From Phycisphaera mikurensis NBRC 102666 (GTDB lineage Bacteria; Planctomycetota; Phycisphaerae; Phycisphaerales; Phycisphaeraceae), in the NCBI RefSeq assembly GCF_000284115.1, contig NC_017080.1, forward strand, positions 2,640,001-2,672,000: a DNA stretch of 32,000 nt. Direction: 5' to 3'. The notes below the pieces were generated by a model. That model made no database searches, was not told the origin of the DNA, and worked only from the letters and a program-made list of their open reading frames with translations. Shown here piece after piece: positions 18,553 to 32,000 of the stretch. Position numbers and translations under genes: made by a program. The stretch's first letter is position 1; each line of letters starts with the position of its first letter.

Positions 18553-20253
18553 TCAATTCATCGCCATGGGCGGCGCGGCGGGGCCGGTCGCGAGCTTGGG
18601 CGGGACCGAGCCGTCGAGCAGCTGTTGGAGGTCGGCGTAGGCGAACCAGTAATCGCGCAACGCTTGGAGGTAGGCGCGGCCGGCGTCGATCTGGTGACGC
18701 TTGGCGCTCAGCAGCTCGAAGGGCGTGACCGCCATCGCGTTGTACTGCAGCTGGCTCTCGGCCACGAGGGCGGTGTGCAGCGGCAGCACCACGTCGCGGA
18801 GGTAGGCCGCCCGCTCCCGGGTGGTCTGCAGCCGGACTTCGGCCATGCGGGCCATCGAGCGGACCTGGGTGGCGGTGGAGAGGAAGGTCTCCAGCCGCTG
18901 GCGGAGGCGCGAGGCCTCCTCCGGGCGGACGCCCTGCCCCAAGTCGAAGACGGGCAGCGGCGTTGCGACCGACGGCCCCAGCCCGAACTCGCCCGAACCG
19001 GCCCCCTTCTCGGTGGTGATGCCCACATTGAGGAAGGGGAACATGGCCAGGACGTTGCGGAGCTTGAGCCGGGCGGCCTGGGCCTCGATGAGGTGCCGCT
19101 GTCCGGCGAGCGCCAGGCTGCGTTCGACCACGAGGCGCTCGACCGCCGCGGACCGCTCCTGCGAGGGGACCAGCGGGTCGGGAAGCCCGGCCCCGCCGGG
19201 CTCGGAGAGGGCGCCGAGCCAGTCCAGGTCCGGCATCGCGGGCGGCGGACCCGCGGCGGCGCCGGCCGTCCCGCTCCCCGGCGGCATGGAAAGATTCTCC
19301 GCCAGCGGCGGGCCGGCCAACACGGCCGCGGCTCCCTCCGCGGATTCCGCTTTTGGAGCAGGCGTGGGGGCGGGCACCTTCGCGACCTCCTCCGGCACGA
19401 GCACCGGGCTGTCGCCGTGCTCCATCCCGGGAACCGCGTCGGCCGCGCGTCCCTCCGCCGTCGTTGCGGCGGGCGGGCCGACCGGCGACCCGTCCGTGGG
19501 CACCGTCCACGCGGTCATCGAGCCGGACAGACTCATGATCCGGTTGAGGGCCTCCCTGGTTTCGCCGAGCCGCTCGAGGGCCAGGTTCAACCGGAGCTTG
19601 GATTCTTCGTAGAGCGTCCGTTCGCGGAGCACCGGCAGCTGCGGGATGTTGCCGGCCTGGCGGAGCCGCTCGGCCGTGAGGTACGAGGCCTCGGTGGCGG
19701 TGACGACGGCCCGCTCCATGTTCACGAGCTGCCGTTGCGTGAGGAAGGCGACGTAGGCCCGCCGGGCGTCGCCGATGGTGGCCAGGACCGCGGCGGAAAC
19801 CCGCCGCTTGGCCGCTTCGAGCTGCTCGCCCTGAATCTCACGCCGAAGCGGGATCGTGAAGACGCTGATCAGGTTCTGGAAGAGCGCCCCCTCGAAGCTG
19901 ACTCCCGCGTCGAAGAACCACGTGTCCCACGCGAGCACGGGGTTGTCCGGCAGCCCGGCCTGGATCAGCTGACCCCGGGAGATACCCAGTTCCTCGTAGA
20001 CGGCCTGAAGGTCGCGGTTGTGCAGGATCGCCACGCGGACGACCGCCTCGGCGGTCAGCGGCTGCGCCAGCGTCTCGCGGACGATGCGGTCGGCCTCGCG
20101 GTCGGCCTCGGGGGTGCGGGTCCAGGCCGGCGAGACCCCGCCGCGGCTCTCCGCGGTGTCGGCGACATCGCCGAAGCCCGCATCGCGCGGGGCGGATGTG
20201 CAGGCGGACGCGGCCAGCGCGAGCATGGTGGTGGTGAAGAGCAGCCGCTTCAT
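18553..20253 (-). CDS. TolC-family outer membrane efflux protein (OMF) lipoprotein, without adjacent MFP/RND partners
   Basis: The start is ATG 20253 (MKRLLFTTTMLALAASAC, a lipobox-like signal). Two OEP-type repeats are present (AILHNRDLQAVYEELGISRGQLIQAGLPDNP... and ...LQYNAMAVTPFELLSAKRHQIDAGRAYLQALRDYW). They are separated by a Pro/Ala-rich insert of about 110 aa. Confidence 0.8.
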   Translation of the reverse strand: MKRLLFTTTMLALAASACTSAPRDAGFGDVADTAESRGGVSPAWTRTPEADREADRIVRETLAQPLTAEAVVRVAILHNRDLQAVYEELGISRGQLIQAGLPDNPVLAWDTWFFDAGVSFEGALFQNLISVFTIPLRREIQGEQLEAAKRRVSAAVLATIGDARRAYVAFLTQRQLVNMERAVVTATEASYLTAERLRQAGNIPQLPVLRERTLYEESKLRLNLALERLGETREALNRIMSLSGSMTAWTVPTDGSPVGPPAATTAEGRAADAVPGMEHGDSPVLVPEEVAKVPAPTPAPKAESAEGAAAVLAGPPLAENLSMPPGSGTAGAAAGPPPAMPDLDWLGALSEPGGAGLPDPLVPSQERSAAVERLVVERSLALAGQRHLIEAQAARLKLRNVLAMFPFLNVGITTEKGAGSGEFGLGPSVATPLPVFDLGQGVRPEEASRLRQRLETFLSTATQVRSMARMAEVRLQTTRERAAYLRDVVLPLHTALVAESQLQYNAMAVTPFELLSAKRHQIDAGRAYLQALRDYWFAYADLQQLLDGSVPPKLATGPAAPPMAMN

Positions 20254-20693
20254 CGTCCGGCCTCCGTCTCGCTGGCTCGATCCGCGTTCTCCGTGAACCC
20301 GCTGCGGGGCCGGTTCTTCATGCCCGGCTCCGGGGCGTCCGGTTGGAACAGGGGCGCCCGCTCGGAGGCCTCCTTCACCTCGCCGGTGTCCGATTCCTCC
20401 ACGCCCGGGGGCAGCTCCCGGGCGTCCCAGGCGGCGTCCATCATCGGGAGCACCGGCTGGGGGTCCACGGCGGCGGTCGCGGCTGGACCGCGGCCGGTGG
20501 GCGCGATCGCCAGCCACGGCGCCGCCACCGGCATCATGCCGGCGGGTGCGTCGGGCTCGGCGGGGTTGCCGACGACGAGAGCGTCGTCGATGATCTGCTG
20601 CGTGTCGGTGCAGCCGACGGGCGCGAGGGCCAGCAGGGCGAGGGCGGGGCTGAGGAGTTTGATGACGGCCTCCGGGAAGACGCTGCGGGACAA
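20250..20693 (-). CDS. Hypothetical small secreted/lipoprotein with Met-pair motifs
   Basis: The track ORF is 20250..20774. Its GTG 20774 start would overlap the upstream gene by 32 nt, so in-frame TTG 20693 is preferred. That start gives the signal-like SRSVFPEAVIKLLSPALALLALAPVGC. The mature part contains GMMPV, LPMMD and PGM. The stop overlaps the OMF start (ATGA 20250-20253). I recognise no homolog. Confidence 0.45.
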   Translation of the reverse strand: MSRSVFPEAVIKLLSPALALLALAPVGCTDTQQIIDDALVVGNPAEPDAPAGMMPVAAPWLAIAPTGRGPAATAAVDPQPVLPMMDAAWDARELPPGVEESDTGEVKEASERAPLFQPDAPEPGMKNRPRSGFTENADRASETEAGR

Positions 20694-20742
20694 ACGGGTC
20701 CGCCCGCGGGCTGCGGGCGGGCCCCATCGGGGCGAAGGGTGT

Positions 20743-21054
20743 TCAGGCGGCCATGGCGCGGCACGCTTCTGCACAGCGACGCGAGCTGTCCGCGCACGTC
20801 TTGCAGTGCTCGTGGTCGTGCTGCTCGCAGTTCTCGGCGCACCGCTCGCACGCCTTCGCGCACAGCTCGCAGGCCTCCCTGGAGAAGGGGCCTTCGCTGG
20901 CGAGCAGGGTGGCGCAGGCCCGGCAGGCCGCGGCGCAGTCGATGCAGCAGGCGGGGCAGTCGTTGGAGCTTTCCATCCCGGCCATCTTCGCGAGGCAGTG
21001 GTCGCAGTCGGCGGCGCATTCGAGGCAGGTCTGGATGCAGTCGGCGTTCTTCAT
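20743..21054 (-). CDS. Cys-rich four-helix-bundle copper-binding protein (DUF326 / Csp3-YhjQ-like)
   Basis: The start is ATG 21054 (MKNADCIQTCLECAADCDHC...). The protein has 20 Cys in 103 aa, arranged as repeated CxxxCxxC / CxxC helix-face motifs and ending ...CKTCADSSRRCAEACRAMAA. There is no signal peptide. It is the first gene downstream of the CsoR box. Confidence 0.85.
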   Translation of the reverse strand: MKNADCIQTCLECAADCDHCLAKMAGMESSNDCPACCIDCAAACRACATLLASEGPFSREACELCAKACERCAENCEQHDHEHCKTCADSSRRCAEACRAMAA

Positions 21055-21112
21055 CTTCGTTCGCGTTCCTACGTTGGGATCTCGGAAAACCCGACGCCAC
21101 GTTGGTGTCGGG

Positions 21113-21127
21113 TACCCCACGGGGGTA
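21113..21127. promoter_or_regulatory. CsoR operator (TACCCC-ACG-GGGGTA inverted repeat) in the csoR / copper-operon divergent promoter region
   Basis: This is a perfect 6+6 inverted repeat, TACCCCACGGGGGTA, centred in the 116-bp divergent intergenic region (21055-21170). It has the TACCC...GGGTA architecture known for CsoR operators and lies 44 nt upstream of the csoR ATG. Confidence 0.7.
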
Positions 21128-21170
21128 TTCAGAGGATCGGTAGCGCGGCGCATGCCGCGGGTCAAGCTCG

Positions 21171-21500
21171 ATGGCGAAAAAGACGCGACACAAGGGCGAT
21201 GAAGCCGGTCGACCCGCGAAGACCCTGCACGTCGACGCCGAGCACAAAGCCGCCGTCGGGCGCCGCCTCCGCCGCATCGAGGGACAGGTCCGCGGCATCG
21301 AGCAGATGATCGAGGAGGATCGCTACTGCGTGGACATCCTCACGCAGATTGCCGCGGTCCACAGCGGCCTGCGGGCGGTGGCGAAGGAGACGCTCCGCCA
21401 CCACCTCCGCCACTGCGTCCGCGACGCGATGGCGAACGACCCCGGCTCGCTGGAGCGGACGATCGAGGAGCTGCTGGAGGTGTACCACCGGGTTCGCTGA
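21171..21500 (+). CDS. csoR: CsoR-family copper-sensing transcriptional repressor
   Basis: The 109-aa protein has RLRRIEGQVRGIEQMIEEDRYCVDILTQI and the x-C-H-C ligand set (YC ... RHHLRHC) typical of Cu(I)-sensing CsoR (DUF156 family). Confidence 0.9.
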   Translation: MAKKTRHKGDEAGRPAKTLHVDAEHKAAVGRRLRRIEGQVRGIEQMIEEDRYCVDILTQIAAVHSGLRAVAKETLRHHLRHCVRDAMANDPGSLERTIEELLEVYHRVR

Positions 21501-21635
21501 CGCTCCCGCTCCGCGGGCTGCGCCCGCGTAAGGCGGTGGACACGGCGGAAGAGCGAATCGGAGGCGTCGCCGCCAGCGCCGGGGAGCCGGTTGCACCGCG
21601 ACCCGAGCCCGGCCTCGCGGCCGCCCGGCAGCGCC

Positions 21636-22292
21636 TCAGAGCAGCGTGAAGAGCTCGCTGCGCACCATCCCGAAGCAGGCGTCCCGGCGGGCCACCGGGC
21701 GTTGCTCGCGGGTGCCGGGCACGCGGCGCCAGTCGATGAGCCGCCGGTTCGGGCAGCCGGTCTGCCACCGGAAGAAGCCGTGCATCAGGCGGAGCCAAAC
21801 GCGGGCGTGCAGCCGGCGGAGGCGCCCGCCGGGCTCGACGAAATCCACCAGCAGCCAGGTGCCGCCGGGGCGGACGGCGCCGAGCCAGGCGGGCAGCCCG
21901 CGGCCGAGCTGCTCCGCGTCGAAGCAGTCCAGGAAGAAGGCCGTCACGAGAGCGTCGAAGCCGTGCTCCTGAAGAGGGTGCTCCAGCGCGTCCGCGCGGA
22001 CGAAGGCGACGCGTCCCCCCGCTTCAGGGGACGCGTCCGCCACCCGCCGCCGCTGCCGGGCGAGCATCGCGCCGCTGAGGTCGACGCTCACGAAGCGGCA
22101 CCGCGGCCGGGCGCGGCACATCGCCGCGAGCAGCCGGCCGTCGCCGTCGCCGAGCACCAGCACGCGGCCTTCGCCGGGGAGCCGATCGAGCAGAGCGACC
22201 CGCGCCCGATGGAGCCGATCGCCGAAGGCCAGCCACTCCAGGCCCCGGTAGAGCCCGGCGAGCCGGTCGTAGCCGCGGCGGGCGGCGCTCAC
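21636..22292 (-). CDS. Class I SAM-dependent methyltransferase
   Basis: The start is GTG 22292 (VSAARRGYDRLAGLYRGLEWLAFG...). Motif I is VLVLGDGDGRLL, followed by VSVDLS, FVRADAL and FDALVTAFFLDCF. The start overlaps the upstream gene stop (GTGA 22289-22292). Confidence 0.75.
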   Translation of the reverse strand: MSAARRGYDRLAGLYRGLEWLAFGDRLHRARVALLDRLPGEGRVLVLGDGDGRLLAAMCRARPRCRFVSVDLSGAMLARQRRRVADASPEAGGRVAFVRADALEHPLQEHGFDALVTAFFLDCFDAEQLGRGLPAWLGAVRPGGTWLLVDFVEPGGRLRRLHARVWLRLMHGFFRWQTGCPNRRLIDWRRVPGTREQRPVARRDACFGMVRSELFTLL

Positions 22293-23206
22293 GGGAGGCC
22301 GAGCCCTTCCTTGAGCCACCCCCAGGCCAGGGCCGCGGCCGCCGGCGGCACCAGCAGCGCGGCGTCCGCCTTCCAGCCGCCGGGATCGAGAAGCGCCCGG
22401 CCGTGGCCACCCGTCGGCCGCAGCGGCGCCGGCCGGCAGGCTCCGGCGGCAAGGGGAGCCAGCGCGGCCGCTCCCGCGAGCAGCGGCACCGCGAAGAGGC
22501 CCGGGAGGACGCCGCACGCCAGGCCGCCCGCCCCGCCGAGCGCCACCAAGCCGAGGAGCCGGCGGGCCAGGCCCGCCCGCGGCGGCTTCGCGTCGGCGTC
22601 CGCCGCCGCCTCCCGCGCCGTCACGACCAGGCAGTTCGCCCCGAACAGCAGCCCCGCGAGAACCACCGCCAGCGCCAGCGGGAAAGACGGAACCTCCGAC
22701 GCGCACGGCAACGCCACGCCGGCCGCGAAGAGCAGGCCCACCCGCAGCTCCTTGGTCCAGCCCCGCGGCGGCGACGCCGGGCCGTGCACGCGGAGCGCGT
22801 AGAGCAGCACGAGCGCCGCGAGCACGCAGCCCGCCCCGAGCAGCCTGGGCTCCAGCCCGCCGGCCGCCACGGCGACCGCGGCGAGGAGCGCGGCCGCCCA
22901 GACCAGCGCCAACCACCCCGCGTGCTCGGCGTGGAGCCGGTGGCGGAGCAGGTGCGGCTTCGCGGGATCCAGGCGCCGCGCGTCGAGCCACCGGTCGCCG
23001 GCGTAGATCAGCCACACCACCAGGCCCAGGGCCAGCGCCTCGGGCGGGCGCGGCCACCGGTCGGAGAAGGCCCGAAGGAAGAGCGTCTGCCAGAGCAGCG
23101 CGACCGCCACCGCGTCCAGCGAGAGCGCGTTGATCGCGGCCCCCGCCCCCGCCGCCGCGGGGGCGGCTGCGGGGGCGGGGGCCTGCGCGATGGTCTCGGT
23201 TCTCAT
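22289..23206 (-). CDS. Hypothetical polytopic membrane protein (possibly a distant UbiA-superfamily-like protein)
   Basis: The start is ATG 23206 (MRTETIAQ...), inside track ORF 22289..26158. There are about 7-8 hydrophobic helices, and a loop motif WLIYAGDRWLDARRLD (DxxxD) follows the second helix. No canonical NxxxDxxxD motif is present, so the family assignment is weak. Confidence 0.5.
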   Translation of the reverse strand: MRTETIAQAPAPAAAPAAAGAGAAINALSLDAVAVALLWQTLFLRAFSDRWPRPPEALALGLVVWLIYAGDRWLDARRLDPAKPHLLRHRLHAEHAGWLALVWAAALLAAVAVAAGGLEPRLLGAGCVLAALVLLYALRVHGPASPPRGWTKELRVGLLFAAGVALPCASEVPSFPLALAVVLAGLLFGANCLVVTAREAAADADAKPPRAGLARRLLGLVALGGAGGLACGVLPGLFAVPLLAGAAALAPLAAGACRPAPLRPTGGHGRALLDPGGWKADAALLVPPAAAALAWGWLKEGLGLP

Positions 23207-23392
23207 GACGTTCCGGCCCCGGCAGCGGAGGGTACGGAGCCGATGCCCCGCGGACGCCGGTGCCGGCGGCCAGCCGCGACCGCCTCGTTCATCGGCGCCG
23301 GGATCGAGGCGTCGCGGAGCTGCGGAAGGCCACCGGATGCCGGTAGGCTCGGCGGTCCGGGCTCCCGCGTTCGCCCCCGTCCTCCCGTTCCC

Positions 23393-25495
<2,103 letters not shown>

Positions 25496-25750
25496 GCATC
25501 GCGCGGCCGAGCCGCCGGATCCAGCGCCCGGCCGCGCGGGCGGGCCCGCGACGACGTGCCGCTGGCGGGCGGGATCGCGACGACGCTCGCGACGCGCGCC
25601 GCCCGAAGCCGGCGTGCGACCGCCCGCGCGCCGCGGGCGACGCCCCACGCCTTCTCGATGCGATCCTCGGGGGTCGCGCCCGACGCGGCTCCCGCCGGGT
25701 GCGGCGCCGGAACCGCCGGCGGATCCGCAGCGTAAAGTCCGGAACCAAGG

Positions 25751-26176
25751 ATGCTCGCCGCGCTCCCCGTCACGCCCGCCCACGCCTTCCGCTGGCTCCT
25801 CGCCGCGGCCGTGGCCTTCGCGAGCCTGGGGCTGTGCCCGTGCCCGGCCCCCGCATCGGCTCAAGCGATCGCGGCCCAGGCGGAGCCGCACGGTTGCTGC
25901 GAGACCGGGGAAGCGCCCGCCGCGCCGGCGATGCCCGACGAAGACTGCAGCCACTGCGTCCCCGCGGAGACGCCGGTGCGGCTGGCCGCCGGCGACCATG
26001 CGGTGGAGCGGCTGGTGCCGGCGGGGTCGTTCCCGCTGCCCGACGCGCTGCCCGATGCCGCCGGCGCGTGGCCCGATCGGTCGGCGGCCTCGGGGCGGGA
26101 GGCCCGGCCGCTGGCCCGACCCGGGCCGGCCCCTGCGCAGACGCTGCGTGCTCTCCACGCGTTGCTGCTGATCTGA
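25751..26176 (+). CDS. Hypothetical small secreted protein with HGCC and CSHC motifs
   Basis: The start is ATG 25751, preceded by AAGG. The signal-like N-terminus is FRWLLAAAVAFASLGLCPCPAPASAQA. Third codon positions are strongly G/C, consistent with coding. It sits directly upstream of the Cus-like operon. I recognise no family. Confidence 0.5.
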   Translation: MLAALPVTPAHAFRWLLAAAVAFASLGLCPCPAPASAQAIAAQAEPHGCCETGEAPAAPAMPDEDCSHCVPAETPVRLAAGDHAVERLVPAGSFPLPDALPDAAGAWPDRSAASGREARPLARPGPAPAQTLRALHALLLI

Positions 26177-26382
26177 TCCAAGACGGCTGCTTGCCGGAGT
26201 CCGCGCCGGTCCGCCGGTTGGCGCGTCCGCCGGTCCGCGGCTTCCGGCATCGCCTCCCCGCGCGGTGATCGCGTGCCCACGCCCTCCCGGCGTCGGGCGC
26301 GTCGCTGCTCTCGCTCCCTCCCCCGCCCGGGGTGCCGCACGCGTCGTGCGCGTCCCGGCTCGCTCCTCCCTGGAACCACCCG

Positions 26383-27018
26383 ATGAAGCTTTTCCTCCTC
26401 CCCGCTCTTGCCCTCCTCCTCGCCGCCCCCGCGCTGCCTTTGGCCGCCGCGGAGCCTCCGCAGCCGCGGAACGTCTACCCGCTTCCCCACGACCCGGTGA
26501 GCGGCGAGCCGCTCGCCGGGGTCGATCAACCCGTCTACCGGACGCACGAGGGCCGCCGCTTCCACTTCGCCTCCGAGGCGTCGGCGGAAGCCTTCGCCGC
26601 CGCGCCGGGCGATTTCATCCCGGCCGTCGACGAGAGGCTGATCGCCACCCAGTCGCGGGTCTACCCGATGCAGACCTGCGCGGTCGCGGGAGGGGCGCTG
26701 GGGTCCATGGGCGAGCCGGTTGACGTGCTGCTGGGCCACCGGCTGGTGAAGCTGTGCTGCGCCGGCTGCAGGGGCGCGGCCGTGGCGGATCCCGAAGCCG
26801 CGATCGAGAAGCTCGACGCCGCCGTGCTCGCCGCTCGCCCCGCCGGCGACGCCGCGGAGACGTGCCCGGTGACGGGGATGAAGCTGGGCAGCATGGGCGA
26901 GCCGGTGGACATCGTCTTCGCCGGCGAACTGGTCCGCTTCTGCTGCGGCGGTTGCACCTCGAAGTTCCTCGCCAACCCCGCGATGCACCTCCAGAAGATC
27001 GAAGGGGCGGGATCGTGA
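26383..27018 (+). CDS. Periplasmic protein made of three tandem YHS/TRASH-like modules (first module lacks all Cys)
   Basis: The start is ATG 26383 (MKLFLLPALALLLAAPALPLAAA, a signal peptide). Modules 2 and 3 are YPMQTCAVAGGALGSMGEPVDVLLGHRLVKLCCAGC and ETCPVTGMKLGSMGEPVDIVFAGELVRFCCGGCTSKFLANP. Module 1 is YPLPHDPVSGEPLAGVDQPVYRTHEGRRFHFASEASAEAF. The stop overlaps the cusC-like start (GTGA 27015-27018). Confidence 0.7.
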   Translation: MKLFLLPALALLLAAPALPLAAAEPPQPRNVYPLPHDPVSGEPLAGVDQPVYRTHEGRRFHFASEASAEAFAAAPGDFIPAVDERLIATQSRVYPMQTCAVAGGALGSMGEPVDVLLGHRLVKLCCAGCRGAAVADPEAAIEKLDAAVLAARPAGDAAETCPVTGMKLGSMGEPVDIVFAGELVRFCCGGCTSKFLANPAMHLQKIEGAGS

Positions 27019-28427
27019 GAGGGCCGACCGTGACGCTCGCGACGCTCCTGCTCACCGGCTGCTCGTCTCCGCTGCGGGACGGCGGGTTCGATGCCTGGAT
27101 CGACGCCGACCCGCGGGCTTGGTCTGCGCCCGGTTCGCCCACGACGCACCGGCTGGGCGACCTCCTCCCCGAGGAGCCGGCCGGGGCGGTGCCCGCCGAC
27201 GTGGAGCGGCTCGTGGAGCTGGCGCTCCGCCGCAACCCGGCGATCGCCGCGGCCGAGCGACGGGTCGAGCGGCTGCGTGCACGCCGACCGCAGGTCGAGT
27301 CCCTCGACGACCCCATGCTGACCGTCTCGCCCATCGGCGACATGGCTCAGACCGCCGCGGGCGAGGTCGGCCTGATGGCCGGGCTCTCGCAGAAGTTCCC
27401 CTTCCCCGGCAAGCTCGAAGCCCGCGGCGACGCCGCGGACCGGGCGGCGGCGGCGGCGCTGGCGGACCTCGCAGACCGGCGGCTGCAGGTCGCCGCGGCG
27501 GTGCGGCGGGCCTGGTGGTCGCTGGCCTACGCCCGCCAGGCGGTGGGTGTGGTGAACGAAGACGTTCAACTGCGTGAGCGGCTCCGCGACTCCGCGGCGG
27601 CTCGATATCGGGCCGGTGCGGCCGAGCGGGCCGACGTGCTGCGGGCCGGGGTGGAGGTCGATGCGCTCCGGCAGGACCTGCTCGAACTCCGCCGGCAGGA
27701 CCAGACGGCGGCGGCGAGCCTCAACCGGCTGCTCGATCGGCCCGCCGACGCGGCGCTGCCGGATCCGCCGGCGGCGACGCTCGCGGACGCCGCGGGCACG
27801 CTGGACGGGCTGCTCGCCGCCGCCGCGAACCACCCGCGGCTGGCGTCGCTGAAGCAGGACATCGCCGCCGCGCGGGACCGGCTCCGGCTGGCGAAGCTCG
27901 ACCGCTGGCCCGACCTCACGGTGGGCGTCAGCTTCGCTGACGTCGACGACGAGGGCCTCGCCCCCGCCGCCACCGGAGAGGACCAGCTCTACCTCAACCT
28001 GGGGATCAACCTGCCCCTGTGGCAGGACCGCCGCGACGCGGCCGAGGCCGAGGCGCTCGCCGGCCTGGGCGAGGCCGCGGCGATGTACACCGACGAGCAG
28101 AACCGGCTGGCCTTCGCGGTCGCCGACGCGCTCGCCCGGGTCGCCCAGCGCCGCGACGCCGTTGCCCTCTACGACGCCGACATGGTGCCCGCCGCGGAGG
28201 AGGCCGTCGCTTCTTCCGCGGCCGGCTACCGCTCGGGCCAAACCGACTTCATCGCCCTCATCGACAACGCCCGCCGCTTGACCACGCTCAAGCTGATGCG
28301 GCTGCGGGCGGTGACGCAACTGCAGCAGGACCTTGCGGACCTCCGCGAGGCGGTGGGCACGCCCGAAGCGTCGCTGCGCGACCCCACCCCCCAAGGGGCG
28401 TGGCACCCGGCCACGGAGACACCATGA
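27015..28427 (+). CDS. cusC: Outer membrane efflux lipoprotein (TolC/CusC family)
   Basis: The start is GTG 27015, giving RGPTVTLATLLLTGC (canonical lipobox L-T-G-C). It has OEP repeats (LVELALRRNPAIAAAERRVE..., YRAGAAERADVLRAGVEVDALRQDL..., YRSGQTDFIALIDNARRL). It is translationally coupled on both sides. Confidence 0.85.
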   Translation: MRGPTVTLATLLLTGCSSPLRDGGFDAWIDADPRAWSAPGSPTTHRLGDLLPEEPAGAVPADVERLVELALRRNPAIAAAERRVERLRARRPQVESLDDPMLTVSPIGDMAQTAAGEVGLMAGLSQKFPFPGKLEARGDAADRAAAAALADLADRRLQVAAAVRRAWWSLAYARQAVGVVNEDVQLRERLRDSAAARYRAGAAERADVLRAGVEVDALRQDLLELRRQDQTAAASLNRLLDRPADAALPDPPAATLADAAGTLDGLLAAAANHPRLASLKQDIAAARDRLRLAKLDRWPDLTVGVSFADVDDEGLAPAATGEDQLYLNLGINLPLWQDRRDAAEAEALAGLGEAAAMYTDEQNRLAFAVADALARVAQRRDAVALYDADMVPAAEEAVASSAAGYRSGQTDFIALIDNARRLTTLKLMRLRAVTQLQQDLADLREAVGTPEASLRDPTPQGAWHPATETP

Positions 28428-30151
28428 AGACCTTCCTCCTCGCCTTGGCGGCCGTCACGCTCGTGCTCGTCGGCGTCCTCGCCGGCCCGCCGCTTCGCGT
28501 CGCCCTCGCGTCCTGGCAAGACGCCCCCGAGCCCGCCGCCGAAGGCGGCGGAGCCAAAGCGCAGCTTTGGCAAAGCGGGATGCACCCCTGGATCATCACC
28601 ACCGAGCCGGGCAACTGCCCGATCTGCGGGATGAAGCTCGAGCCCATCGACCCCGCGAAGCTCACCGGCGAGATCGCCATCGACCCGGTGGTGGTTCAGA
28701 ACATCGGCGTCCGCACGGCTCCGGTCGTCCGTGGTCCCGCCGTTGCGACCCTCCGCACCGTGGGCACCGTGGAGGTCGCCGAGCCCAACGTCCACGACGT
28801 GAATCTCCGCGTCTCCGGCTGGATCGTCGACCTCTTCGTCGACTACGAGGGGGCGGAGGTCGCGGCCGGCGACGAGCTGTTCACGCTCTACTCGCCGCAG
28901 CTCTACGCCGCCGCGGAGGAGTTCCTGCTGGCGGCGGGCGGGGGCTCCGCCGACGACCCGCTGCGGGGCTCGGCCCGGGACCGGCTGCTGAACCTGGGGC
29001 TCACCGAGTCCCAGGTTGACGCGCTGCGGGAGGCCGGCACCACCGAGCGGAACATGCCCGTCGTCAGCCCCGCCACCGGGACCGTCACCGAGAAGATGGT
29101 CAACGAGGGCATGAACGTCCAGCCGGGGATGCGGGTGTTCCGCATCGTCGACCTCTCCACCGTGTGGGTGCAGGTCACGCTCTACGAGTCGCAGCTGAGC
29201 GGCGTGGAGGTCGGCCAGCCCGCCACCCTGACGGTCGCCAGCCTGCCCGGCGAGACCTTCGAGGGCGAGCTGTCCTTCATCGACCCGACGCTGGACCCCC
29301 GGACCCGGGCCGTGCAAGCCCGCCTGGTCTTCGAGAACCCCGGGAACCGGCTCAAACCGGGGATGTTCGCGGACGTAACGCTCCGCAACGTGCTCGCCGA
29401 GGAAGCCGTGCTCGCGCCGCGGGAGGCGGTCGTCAAGACCGGCGCCCGCGAGCTGGCCTTCGTCGCCAAGGGCGGCGGACGCTTCGACCCCCGCGAGGTG
29501 GAGACCGCCGGCGACGTGGCCGACGGGAGGGTGCGCATCGCATCGGGCCTGGAGCCCGGCGAGAACGTGGTGACCAGCGGGCAGTTCCTGCTCGACAGCG
29601 AGGCGAGTGTGCGAGCTTCGCTCGCACGGATGGTCGGCGGCGAGGGCGGCGTTCGTGCCCGGGTGCCGCGCCCGCTCGGAGGTGGATCGGGAGAAGCGGG
29701 GAATCCCCAATTTCTGGAGGACGTGGCACCCGGGCGGGAGGAGACCGTTCCCTTGGCCAAGGCGTACCTCCAGCTCCAGACCAACCTCACGCGGAACGAG
29801 CCCGCGGGCGCCCCCGCCGTCGCGGAGGCCGCCCGCTCGCTCGCCGCGGCGTCCGACGGCCGCACCGCCGAGCTCGCCGCCGCCGTCGCCGAATCCGCGG
29901 ACCGCGTGCCCGCGGACGCCGATCTGGCCACGGTCCGCGGGTCCTTCGAAGCGATCTCCCTCGCCGCCGTCGAGCTCTTTGAGGCGGCCCCGCCGGCGGG
30001 CGTCGGCCCGCTCGCCGTCGCGCACTGCCCGATGGTCGACAAGGACTGGCTGCAGGCCGGCGCCGCCATCCGCAACCCGTACGACCCCTCGATGCTCACC
30101 TGCGGCACCGTGCTCCGCACCCTCCCCGAAGGAGCCGCCGATGCTCGCTGA
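28424..30151 (+). CDS. cusB: Efflux RND periplasmic adaptor (CusB-like) with an N-terminal metal-binding domain and a C-terminal DUF3347-like domain
   Basis: The start is ATG 28424 (ATGA overlap with the cusC stop). It has a signal/TM followed by MHPWIITTEPGNCPICGMKLEP (HMBD). The MFP core follows (AIDPVVVQNIGVRTAPV, VSGWIVDLFVDYEG, SPATGTVTEKMVNEG, VTSGQFLLDSEA). The C-terminal roughly 150 aa ends AHCPMVDKDWLQAGAAIRNPYDPSMLTCG. Confidence 0.9.
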   Translation: MKTFLLALAAVTLVLVGVLAGPPLRVALASWQDAPEPAAEGGGAKAQLWQSGMHPWIITTEPGNCPICGMKLEPIDPAKLTGEIAIDPVVVQNIGVRTAPVVRGPAVATLRTVGTVEVAEPNVHDVNLRVSGWIVDLFVDYEGAEVAAGDELFTLYSPQLYAAAEEFLLAAGGGSADDPLRGSARDRLLNLGLTESQVDALREAGTTERNMPVVSPATGTVTEKMVNEGMNVQPGMRVFRIVDLSTVWVQVTLYESQLSGVEVGQPATLTVASLPGETFEGELSFIDPTLDPRTRAVQARLVFENPGNRLKPGMFADVTLRNVLAEEAVLAPREAVVKTGARELAFVAKGGGRFDPREVETAGDVADGRVRIASGLEPGENVVTSGQFLLDSEASVRASLARMVGGEGGVRARVPRPLGGGSGEAGNPQFLEDVAPGREETVPLAKAYLQLQTNLTRNEPAGAPAVAEAARSLAAASDGRTAELAAAVAESADRVPADADLATVRGSFEAISLAAVELFEAAPPAGVGPLAVAHCPMVDKDWLQAGAAIRNPYDPSMLTCGTVLRTLPEGAADAR

Positions 30152-32000
30152 TCCCAACGCCAGGGAAGGCTTCACCGCGAAGCTGATCCGCGCCTGCGTG
30201 GCGAACCGCTTGCTCGTGCTGCTGCTCGCCGCGATCACCGCCGTGGGTGGCGTGTACGCCGCCCGGCACATCACCGTCGACGCGCTGCCGGACCTCTCCG
30301 ACGTGCAGGTCGTCGTGCGCACCGAGTTCCCGGGCCAGGCCCCGGGCATCGTGCAGGACCAGGTGACTTACCCGCTGACCACCGCGATGCTCGCGGTGCC
30401 CGACGCCGAGGTCGTGCGCGGGTATTCGATGTTCGGCACGAGCTTCGTGTATGTCCTCTTCGAGGACGGGACCGACCTGTACTGGGCGCGGAGTCGCGTG
30501 CTGGAGCAGCTCTCGACCGTGGACTCGCGCCTGCCGGAGGGGGTGACGCCGGAGCTGGGGCCGGATGCGACGGCGGTGGGCTGGGTCTACCAGTACGTGC
30601 TGACGACGGGGCCCTACTGCCCGGAGCACCCCGAGGGGCTTTGGCGGGACGAAGCCGGCGACTGGTCCGCGGAGAAGCCTGACGACCCGGAGGCGGAGCG
30701 CGTCAAGGTCTTCGACCACGACGCCGAGGTCTGCCCGCTGGACGGGACGCCGCTCGCGCAGGCCGACGCCTCGCTCGCCGAGCTGCGGAGCCTCCAGGAC
30801 TGGTACCTGCGGTACGAGTTGACGACGGTGGAGGGCGTGAGCGAGGTCGCCGCCATCGGCGGCTTCGTGAAGCAGTACCAGGTCACGATCGACCCCAACC
30901 GGCTGCTGGCGTACGGGCTCCCGCTGGGCAGAGTCCGCGAGGCAATCCAGCGGAGCAACCGCGACGTGGGCGGCCGCGTGGTGGAGCGCGGCGAGACCGA
31001 GTTCATGGTCCGCGGCCGCGGCTACCTGGGGACGGGAGACCCCACGGACGGGTCCGCGGAGGACACACTGGGCCGGGAGCAGACCGACCGCGTCCTCGAA
31101 GACCTGCGTTTGATCTCGCTGGGAACCGATGAGGACGGCTCGCCAATCTACCTCCGCGACGTCGCCGACGTGGCCATCGGCCCGGAGATCCGCCGCGGCG
31201 TGGCCGAGTGGGACGGGGAGGGCGAGACCGCCGGCGGCGTGGTCATCATGCGCTTCGGCGAGAACGCGCAGGCGACGATCGACCGCGTCCGCGACCGGCT
31301 CTTCGAGCTGGAGGAGGGCCTGCCGCCCGGCGTCGCGATCGACGTCGCCTACGACCGCAGCGACCTCATCGAGCGGGCGATCCACACGGTCTCCGAGACG
31401 CTGCTCGAGGAGATCCTCGTGGTCGGCTGCGTCATCCTGATCTTCTTGGCTCACGCCCGCAGCGCCTTGGTCGCCGCGCTGGTGCTGCCCGCCGGGGTGC
31501 TGCTGACGCTGGGCGTCATGTACGCGCTGGGCCTGAACGCGAACATCATGAGCCTGGGCGGGATCGCGATCTCGATCGGCGTCATGGTCGACAGCTCGAT
31601 CGTGATGGTCGAGAACGCGCACAAGCACCTCGAACGCGAGCACCACCGGCGCGAGGCGGGCGAGCCGCCACGCAGCCACGCGTCGGTGATCGCCGACGCC
31701 AGCGCGGAGGTCGGCCCCACGCTGTTCTTCTCGCTGCTGATCATCATGGTCAGCTTCCTGCCGATCTTCGTGCTCGACGGCCAGAGCGGCCGGCTCTTCA
31801 AGCCGCTGGCCTACACCAAGACCTTCGCCATGGCGGCCGCCGCGGGCGTGGCCGTCACGCTGATCCCGGTGGTGATGGTGTACACGCTCCGCGAGGGCGG
31901 CCCCCGGAAGCGGGTCGCGGCGCTCTGCGCGGCGGGAACCTTCGTCCTCTTCGCCCTCCTCCCGCTGGGGGCGCTGGAGGACAGCCGCTGGCTCGTCGCG
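30141..32000 (+). CDS. cusA: Heavy-metal efflux RND permease (CusA/CzcA family), 5' part; continues beyond the window
   Basis: The start is ATG 30141, preceded by GAAGGAG, and it overlaps the cusB end by 11 nt. The frame is open to the window end and is absent from the ORF track because it has no stop. The sequence aligns to CusA throughout: DALPDLSDVQVVV, GPDATAVGWVYQY, LRSLQDWYLRYEL, GLNANIMSLGGIAISIGVMVDSSIVMVENAHK and VGPTLFFSLLIIMVSFLPIF. The Cu/Ag assignment rests on context. Confidence 0.95.
   Translation, partial: MLADPNAREGFTAKLIRACVANRLLVLLLAAITAVGGVYAARHITVDALPDLSDVQVVVRTEFPGQAPGIVQDQVTYPLTTAMLAVPDAEVVRGYSMFGTSFVYVLFEDGTDLYWARSRVLEQLSTVDSRLPEGVTPELGPDATAVGWVYQYVLTTGPYCPEHPEGLWRDEAGDWSAEKPDDPEAERVKVFDHDAEVCPLDGTPLAQADASLAELRSLQDWYLRYELTTVEGVSEVAAIGGFVKQYQVTIDPNRLLAYGLPLGRVREAIQRSNRDVGGRVVERGETEFMVRGRGYLGTGDPTDGSAEDTLGREQTDRVLEDLRLISLGTDEDGSPIYLRDVADVAIGPEIRRGVAEWDGEGETAGGVVIMRFGENAQATIDRVRDRLFELEEGLPPGVAIDVAYDRSDLIERAIHTVSETLLEEILVVGCVILIFLAHARSALVAALVLPAGVLLTLGVMYALGLNANIMSLGGIAISIGVMVDSSIVMVENAHKHLEREHHRREAGEPPRSHASVIADASAEVGPTLFFSLLIIMVSFLPIFVLDGQSGRLFKPLAYTKTFAMAAAAGVAVTLIPVVMVYTLREGGPRKRVAALCAAGTFVLFALLPLGALEDSRWLVA

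Follow-up and report, generated by a model that had tools for sequence, protein, structure and literature searches.

The gene examined here lies on the forward strand of a 32,000-nucleotide stretch of the Phycisphaera mikurensis NBRC 102666 genome (contig NC_017080.1, positions 2,640,001 to 2,672,000); this whole stretch is referred to as the window, and positions at the locus are given in its coordinates. The gene encodes a protein of 211 residues composed of three tandem YHS/TRASH-like modules, and it is followed by cusC-, cusB- and cusA-like genes (Table 1). The stop codon of the tandem-YHS gene overlaps the GTG start of the cusC-like gene within the sequence GTGA (27015–27018), as a preliminary description of this DNA had noted; the cusB-like gene starts at 28424, in an ATGA overlap with the preceding cusC. 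The N-terminus of the tandem-YHS protein, MKLFLLPALALLLAAPALPLAAA followed by EPP, contains an n-region, a hydrophobic core and an AxA site, and by eye it reads as a Sec signal peptide. One hydrophobic run is also present at the N-terminus of 135 of the 137 family representatives that begin with Met; the signal peptide of the preliminary description is thus supported both by the sequence at this locus and by its conservation throughout the family.

Table 1. Features of the tandem-YHS locus, in window coordinates
Feature	Position	Strand	Basis or remark
Small Cys-rich open reading frame (ORF), 141 residues, LCPCP...HGCC...CSHC...LRALHALLLI	25751..26176	+	Frame kept in the second genomic copy
Tandem-YHS gene, three-module YHS/TRASH protein of 211 residues	26383..27018	+	ORF translation, no internal stops; Pfam YHS; AlphaFold2 (AF2) model
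Signal-peptide-like N-terminus, residues 1–23	26383..26451	+	AxA site before EPP; read from sequence
Module 1, Cys-free YHS (DPVSG...FHFAS), D37/A63/S64/S67	26476..26637	+	Best Pfam YHS stretch, residues 37–79
Module 2, C99-x25-C125 C126-x2-C129, LGSMGEP loop (M109)	26662..26826	+	Module model, 83.0 bits
Module 3, C161-x25-C187 C188-x2-C191, LGSMGEP loop (M171)	26854..27009	+	Module model, 79.5 bits; AF2
cusC-like outer-membrane factor, lipoprotein type, lipobox LLLTGC	27015..28427	+	Pfam OEP, E 1.7e-38
cusB-like adaptor, N-terminal HMBD and C-terminal DUF3347-like extension	28424..30151	+	HlyD_D23, E 1e-70; HMBD; CusB model
cusA-type pump, 1243 residues, continues to window coordinate 33872	30141..32000	+	Escherichia coli CusA alignment

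Fold and cysteine sites of the three modules

Using one module hidden Markov model (HMM) derived from homologues, we delimited the three modules at residues 32–85, 94–148 and 158–209, with scores of 19.4, 83.0 and 79.5 bits, respectively. Each unit is ∼56 residues in size and the repeat period is ∼62 residues; the module starts proposed in the preliminary description (26476, 26662 and 26857) were right, whereas its unit length of ∼46 residues was too short. The repeat is detectable in the DNA as well, where module 3 of this gene cross-matches module 2 of its paralogue at 71.6%. Because of this DNA-level repeat, and because the pattern recurs in hundreds of homologues, the module repeat is more than chance.

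Against Pfam YHS (PF04945), the whole protein scores 38.8 bits in two stretches, with a cut-off of 30.3 bits. Taken singly, modules 1 and 3 match the same model below the cut-off (23.6 and 21.5–21.8 bits, respectively), and module 2 alone has no Pfam match. The TRASH_HVO_1752_C model (PF24273, cut-off 27 bits) is also matched below its cut-off, by the whole protein at 23.4 bits, in its module 3, and by module 3 alone at 19.0 bits. When 71 last modules from related loci were compared with Pfam at E ≤ 0.01, 28 matched YHS, 23 matched TRASH_HVO_1752_C and 9 matched Arc_trans_TRASH (PF08394).

In the AF2 model of the whole protein, which was built with a 63-sequence alignment, the mean predicted local distance difference test score (pLDDT) is 91 and the predicted template modelling score (pTM) is 0.83. 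Every module forms one two-strand hairpin that is followed by two helices; for module 1, the pLDDT reaches 97–99. Module 3 was also modelled alone (pLDDT 84) and compared with solved structures using Foldseek. The best match is the YHS domain of phenol hydroxylase (2inn_A), with a query-normalised template modelling (TM) score of 0.69, a probability of 1.00 and 55 aligned columns, followed by the toluene monooxygenases T4MO/ToMO (TM 0.62–0.65) and by L24e and the ZMYM5 TRASH domain (TM 0.47–0.56); the E-values are only 0.05–0.5, as expected for a query of 57 residues. The YHS domains of phenol and toluene monooxygenases and the TRASH domains of L24e and MYM proteins are the structural prototypes of YHS and TRASH (PMC4626032). 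The Foldseek search with the whole protein gave nothing better than E > 0.5, and sequence searches of solved structures, with the protein and with the module profile (PilF tetracysteine region, E 0.17), gave matches at chance level only.

Taken together, the modules belong to the YHS/TRASH class by sequence and predicted fold; the class named in the preliminary description is borne out by the whole-protein YHS score and by the fold match of the single module. With regard to TRASH, the modules are TRASH-like and not canonical members, because the C-x25-C-x3-C spacing of modules 2 and 3 departs from the C-x19-22-C-x3-C of TRASH and the HMM scores stay below the cut-off, yet the fold resembles those of L24e and ZMYM5.

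The closest structural relatives, the C-terminal YHS domains in the alpha subunits of phenol hydroxylase and toluene monooxygenase (PDB 2inn and 3dhg, TM 0.62–0.69), are like module 1 in that they bind no metal (PMC4626032). Different from the modules described here, they are unrepeated parts of cytoplasmic diiron enzymes and have no link to metal export. These structures bear on the idea that the protein is an array of structural zinc ribbons, in which the cysteines would hold Zn and the whole would serve as a scaffold, a plug or a regulator of pump assembly. The relation of the fold to the Zn-ribbon-like L24e and MYM TRASH domains speaks for such an array, as does the pTM of 0.83, which suggests a rigid three-module body. 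However, Cys-free modules are predicted with the same fold, module 1 at the pLDDT given above, and in toluene monooxygenase a YHS domain devoid of cysteines is folded with no metal bound (PMC4626032). A structural metal is therefore not needed for the fold, and we regard a purely structural array as very improbable.

At the four Cys columns, modules 1, 2 and 3 read DASS, CCCC and CCCC, respectively, which agrees with the residues listed in the preliminary description. The cysteines of module 2 are invariant in three family alignments, the broad one of which contains 27 sequences. The Met of the GSMGEP loop is conserved in at least 90% of the Cys modules and is absent from module 1. The Cys modules follow the pattern CPV[AT]G-x∼20-[FL]CCxGC, compared to DPVCG...FCSxxC in canonical YHS; the first ligand of modules 2 and 3 occupies the position of the YHS Asp, three residues before the YHS Cys, and the YHS Ser is replaced by a second, vicinal Cys. 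In module 1 the corresponding sequence, DPVSG...FHFASEAS, matches the YHS consensus except that the cysteines are gone. Across 142 family representatives, C1, C2 and C4 are near-invariant and C3 is the most variable position (CCSC and CCGC forms); the core ligand set is therefore C1, C2 and C4, which is the TRASH triad.

The same variability bears on the suggestion that the protein is a thiol-disulfide redox protein, whose CC-x2-C motif would cycle between its reduced and oxidized forms, so that it might, for instance, reduce Cu(II) or shield the thiols of the periplasm under copper stress. Vicinal and CxxC-like cysteines in one exported protein would suit this role. Neither the profile searches nor the structure searches found any thioredoxin-like fold or family match, however, and variation falls on the second Cys of the vicinal pair, so that what is left is the metal-site pattern C...C-x3-C and no conserved CxxC. 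Of all the explanations considered, this is the least probable, and we give it very little weight.

In Cu-ATPases and in the M. phlei adenylyl cyclase, YHS domains (PF04945) likewise occur in a copper context, and the modules of the tandem-YHS protein belong to the same family by HMM and fold. The cyclase domain acts as a copper sensor, and the YHS copper site has been proposed to consist of one Asp and three Cys (PMC4626032). Those proteins carry one cytosolic YHS domain as part of an enzyme or a pump, whereas the protein at this locus is a free-standing, exported tandem array; its first ligand lies three residues earlier, its loop is longer (C-x25-C), and it carries FCCxxC in place of FCSxxC. 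The Sulfolobus cop operon provides a second point of comparison, since CopM and the regulator CopT also consist of TRASH-type Cys modules, lie beside a copper exporter and are regarded as metal-trafficking components; unlike the tandem-YHS protein, they are archaeal, cytoplasmic, single-domain proteins with the spacing C-x19-22-C-x3-C and a P-type ATPase as partner (Ettema 2003/2006, cited in PMC5328820). The TRASH protein CopM is regarded as copper-binding (PMC5328820).

The family and its Cys-free modules

The tandem-YHS protein is one form of a large family, and its architecture is not unique to this locus. In one word-indexed search we found 212 relatives, mostly from Phycisphaerae/Planctomycetota; the named ones carry the labels ‘YHS domain-containing protein’ or ‘hypothetical’. 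The family HMM, run against 1.84 billion representatives at 50% identity, retrieved 640 sequences at E ≤ 1e-30; the count rises to 2765 when E ≤ 1e-10 is allowed and to 7486 when E ≤ 1e-3 is allowed. Among 185,579 species genomes scanned, 221 loci were confirmed. Beyond Planctomycetota, loci are found in Hydrogenedentota, Eisenbacteria, Gemmatimonadota, Nitrospirales, Sumerlaeota and Zixibacteria; the cultured Rohdeia mirabilis Pla163 is among the carriers. The family thus comprises hundreds of 50%-identity clusters in at least seven phylum-level groups.

The number of modules per protein varies from three to six. If C denotes a module with four Cys and o one with none, the best 120 relatives include 45 proteins of C-C-C architecture, 28 of o-C-C architecture, as in the protein described here, and 25 of C-C-C-C architecture; another 12 have five modules, the third of which reads C-A-(D/S/N)-A. 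In the o-C-C proteins the first Cys column is always Asp. The 142 family representatives gave the same picture, and 40 of them carry one His-rich C-terminal tail, which the P. mikurensis protein lacks. The six-module gene of R. mirabilis Pla163 (locus L028, 7896–9263) encodes 455 residues arranged as o-C-C, one His-rich linker (HDEHEHGEHGGDAHEE) and again o-C-C; it is preceded by one Cys/His-rich small ORF of 182 residues and followed by cusC.

The preliminary description had considered the three-module array novel. The domain itself is known, the relatives are already labelled YHS proteins in databases and the architecture is shared by the large family; on the other hand, the literature search found no paper on the tandem architecture in exported form, on the altered CC-x2-C site, on Cys-free modules that recur or on the close association with CusCBA.

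To follow the origin of module 1, the four Cys columns were masked and the module tree was computed. The 27 first modules that lack Cys all fall within one clade (support 0.83), which contains position-equivalent modules only, namely the first of three, the second of four and the second of five. The partly depleted third-of-five modules form one separate clade (support 0.99) beside the Cys-bearing third-of-five modules. This placement indicates that the cysteines were lost at least two times and that module 1 is derived from a Cys module, in support of the loss stated in the preliminary description. The LGSMGEP loop was also lost from module 1, which fits the loss of the whole metal site with the fold retained.

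Although it has no cysteines, module 1 is not a decaying remnant; this possibility was rejected on its conservation in the subfamily and its substitution pattern. Between the two copies of the gene in this genome, the ratio of nonsynonymous to synonymous substitution rates (dN/dS) is 0.22 for module 1, compared to 0.59 and 0.69 for modules 2 and 3. Within the o-C-C subfamily module 1 is kept throughout, with a mean pairwise identity of 51%, compared to 59% and 57% for modules 2 and 3, and in R. mirabilis the o-C-C triad was duplicated as one unit. The word ‘decoy’, which had been applied to module 1, is hard to reconcile with the lowest dN/dS of the three modules, conservation over the subfamily and duplication together with its Cys modules. 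The Cys-bearing, partly Cys-depleted and Cys-free modules provide one natural series on the YHS fold with and without the metal site.

Pump partner and proposed function

The local CusA aligns with E. coli CusA at E 5.5e-298, compared to E 4.9e-121 with the Zn pump ZneA, and the residues aligned with M573, M623 and M672 of the Met triad are all Met (LLYMP, SMLETT and RIDMLSTG). Judged by its sequence, the downstream operon is a CusCBA-type Cu(I)/Ag(I) system of the heavy-metal efflux resistance-nodulation-division (HME-RND) class; a Zn/Cd pump as the partner was ranked low on this CusA-type signature. The adaptor CusB matches HMBD at 36.4 bits (cut-off 23.6) and the NCBIfam CusB model at E 1.6e-47, and is a candidate metal acceptor.

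The genomic context of the family was surveyed by tblastn of the CusC, CusB and CusA sequences of the window, together with one panel of copper proteins, against 80 loci; counts are given for the 42 loci with at least 7 kb on either side, and neighbours were sought within 8 kb. CusBA-like RND pumps are present at 34 of the 42 loci, CopA-like ATPases at 18 and multicopper oxidases at 3; at least one of these three is present at 38. Strong co-location with CusCBA-type pumps, whose lack elsewhere would have refuted the preliminary description, is therefore observed. The tandem-YHS genes are on the same strand as the pump genes, either directly before cusC or directly after cusA. The three-module forms usually lead (YHS, cusC, cusB, cusA), and the four- and five-module forms usually stand directly after cusA. 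Two o-C-C homologues on long contigs (loci L084 and L085) lie in copper islands with Csp, multicopper oxidase and one ATPase that carries YHS and HMBD.

Among the periplasmic chaperones of Cu/Ag RND pumps, CusF alone is well understood. It has an OB-like barrel with His/Met/Trp ligands. Like CusF (PF11604, E. coli CusCFBA), the tandem-YHS protein is small, exported and encoded inside one CusCBA-type operon, and the role proposed for it, the capture of periplasmic Cu(I)/Ag(I) for the pump, is the same. Different from CusF, it is of hairpin-plus-helices YHS/TRASH fold, it has three modules and its ligands are Cys; in addition, its gene is located before cusC or after cusA, whereas cusF is located between cusC and cusB. 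The tandem-YHS protein itself has no PF11604 match, and no protein of this genome matches PF11604 over the cut-off; the only match in the genome lies elsewhere and reaches 20.7 bits, with a cut-off of 27. Among 201 sampled genomes of Planctomycetota, CusF was found in 1 and HME-RND pumps over the cut-off in 135. The idea that the protein takes the place of CusF is consistent with this distribution; the function itself is a proposal.

Our preferred reading, to which we assign a probability of roughly 0.55, is that the tandem-YHS protein most likely works as an accessory of the downstream CusCBA-type pump, soluble in the periplasm and binding Cu(I)/Ag(I). It would be a functional analogue of CusF with another fold, in which module 1 has a docking or structural role. 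The protein would be exported via Sec, judging from its N-terminus, and modules 2 and 3, according to the modelling and fold comparison, each fold as one YHS/TRASH unit of hairpin and two helices. The thiolate site of C1, C2 and C4 in these modules, assisted by the accessory vicinal C3 and the nearby loop Met, would capture Cu(I)/Ag(I). From there, the metal would go to the N-terminal HMBD of CusB, which contains Cys, or straight to the Met triad of CusA, for extrusion. Module 1, the most constrained of the three, would most likely serve as a non-metal docking or structural module, for example by contacting the adaptor or by fixing the geometry of the array.

Several points weigh against this assignment. 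Met/His and not Cys is the typical ligand choice of Cu(I) chaperones in the periplasm, CusF among them; the four Cys of a module could become oxidized there, and a treble-clef-like site of four Cys could just as well hold Zn in a structural capacity. The signal peptide was assigned by eye. Nor is the family bound strictly to RND pumps: no pump was found within 8 kb at 8 of the 42 well-flanked loci, of which 4 have an ATPase or multicopper oxidase and 4 have none. In addition, although most sampled Planctomycetota genomes have HME-RND pumps, full-length tandem-YHS proteins (E ≤ 1e-55) are present in only ∼29 of the 201; the protein is therefore an accessory and not a requirement.

The loci without a nearby pump are relevant to one alternative, that the protein is a periplasmic sponge or buffer, which sequesters Cu(I)/Ag(I), possibly in small thiolate clusters at CC-x2-C and at His-rich tails, and keeps free metal in the periplasm low with no specific hand-over to the pump. 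The presence of several sites per chain, the variation of the module number from 3 to 6, the His-rich tails of the 40 representatives, the occurrence of CopA-like ATPase or multicopper oxidase in the absence of an RND pump at some loci and the Csp copper-storage genes in the same islands are all in line with buffering. However, the P. mikurensis protein has no His-rich tail, and the genes are placed tightly, with start/stop overlap or a gap of less than ∼100 nucleotides to cusC at several loci, or directly after cusA; this placement suggests that the tandem-YHS protein is made stoichiometrically with the pump. We consider a buffer without pump hand-over unlikely.

The nature of the metal was weighed in the same way. 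Sites of four or three Cys are good binders of Zn, Cd and Hg, and the TRASH site of L24e holds Cd in the crystal (PMC4626032), so the chaperone or buffer role might concern a thiophilic metal other than Cu or Ag, for instance Zn(II), Cd(II), Hg(II) or Au(I). With the Met triad and the CusA-over-ZneA preference of the adjacent pump, and with multicopper oxidase, Csp, CopA-like ATPase and CsoR-like genes as neighbours, the surroundings point to copper instead, and another metal is quite improbable.

Beyond the pump accessory proposed for this locus, we offer one broader and more tentative idea, which we doubt more than we believe: the Met/His relay of CusF might give way, in Phycisphaerae and in several further phyla, to a periplasmic copper relay that works with thiolates. 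The parts of this relay, conserved together, would be the small Cys-rich leader, the tandem YHS/TRASH chaperone, both ends of CusB (HMBD and DUF3347-like), and CusA with one Cys-bearing periplasmic insert; the Cys-free YHS module would have been repurposed for docking, holding the two metal-loaded modules in place on the pump. At the least, the family provides a testable candidate for pump feeding or periplasmic copper buffering where CusF is not found, and the YHS/TRASH domain, which is regarded as cytosolic (PMC4626032), would be extended to an exported tandem-repeat form.

Neighbouring genes and the second genomic copy

The small Cys-rich ORF of 141 residues ends 206 nucleotides upstream of the tandem-YHS gene. 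Its C-terminus (LLLI) is hydrophobic. It has no Pfam match and only 4 homologues by sequence, and it evolves fast; look-alike small Cys-rich ORFs are located directly 5' of the o-C-C homologues at L084, L085 and L028 (Rohdeia). The unit formed by the small ORF, the YHS gene, cusC, cusB and cusA (window coordinates 25708–33805) is duplicated on one second contig of 81 kb, C2, at positions 20079–28629, with 83–91% nucleotide identity, and the frame of the small ORF is preserved in the C2 copy across one in-frame indel of 6 nucleotides. The small ORF is probably the first gene of the unit. Because this conserved ORF lies 206 nucleotides upstream and is part of the duplicated unit, the tandem-YHS gene may be the second cistron, and its earlier designation as the first cistron is doubtful. 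One scan of 25400–27200 for consensus promoters and terminators found no sites, and does not bear on co-transcription of the small ORF with the YHS gene. Between these two genes, one stretch of 24 nucleotides (26199–26225), which holds part of one GTCCGC direct-repeat cluster, is missing from the C2 copy; the GTCCGC repeats are therefore not conserved between the two units.

The neighbours of the C2 copy comprise one CsoR-like gene, one Tat-type multicopper oxidase, one TolC-like gene and two His-rich exported proteins. Megablast of the copy against the PLSDB plasmids, a set from which the records of this genome may be absent, gave no match. Contig C2 has a G+C content of 70%, compared to 73%, and looks like a metal-resistance plasmid or island.

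The pump proteins of the window show some further features. The C-terminal ∼130 residues of CusB (29750–30151) match the NCBIfam LIC13259/LIC11441 family models at E 4e-9 and DUF3347 weakly; this extension terminates in HCPMVDKDWLQ...NPY...CG, which is a second putative periplasmic metal site on the adaptor. CusA is 1243 residues in length, compared to ∼1047 in E. coli, and aligns in four blocks, with unaligned stretches of ∼55, 47 and 58 residues (roughly 156–210, 586–632 and 766–823). It ends in one (AGAAG)n-like tail, AGAAGAAGAAGAAGAAGAAGS; the C2 copy lacks this tail. Beyond the window, one ORF of 1579 residues (window coordinates 33876–38615) begins 4 nucleotides past cusA, and it is followed downstream by one response regulator and one histidine kinase (39033–41955).

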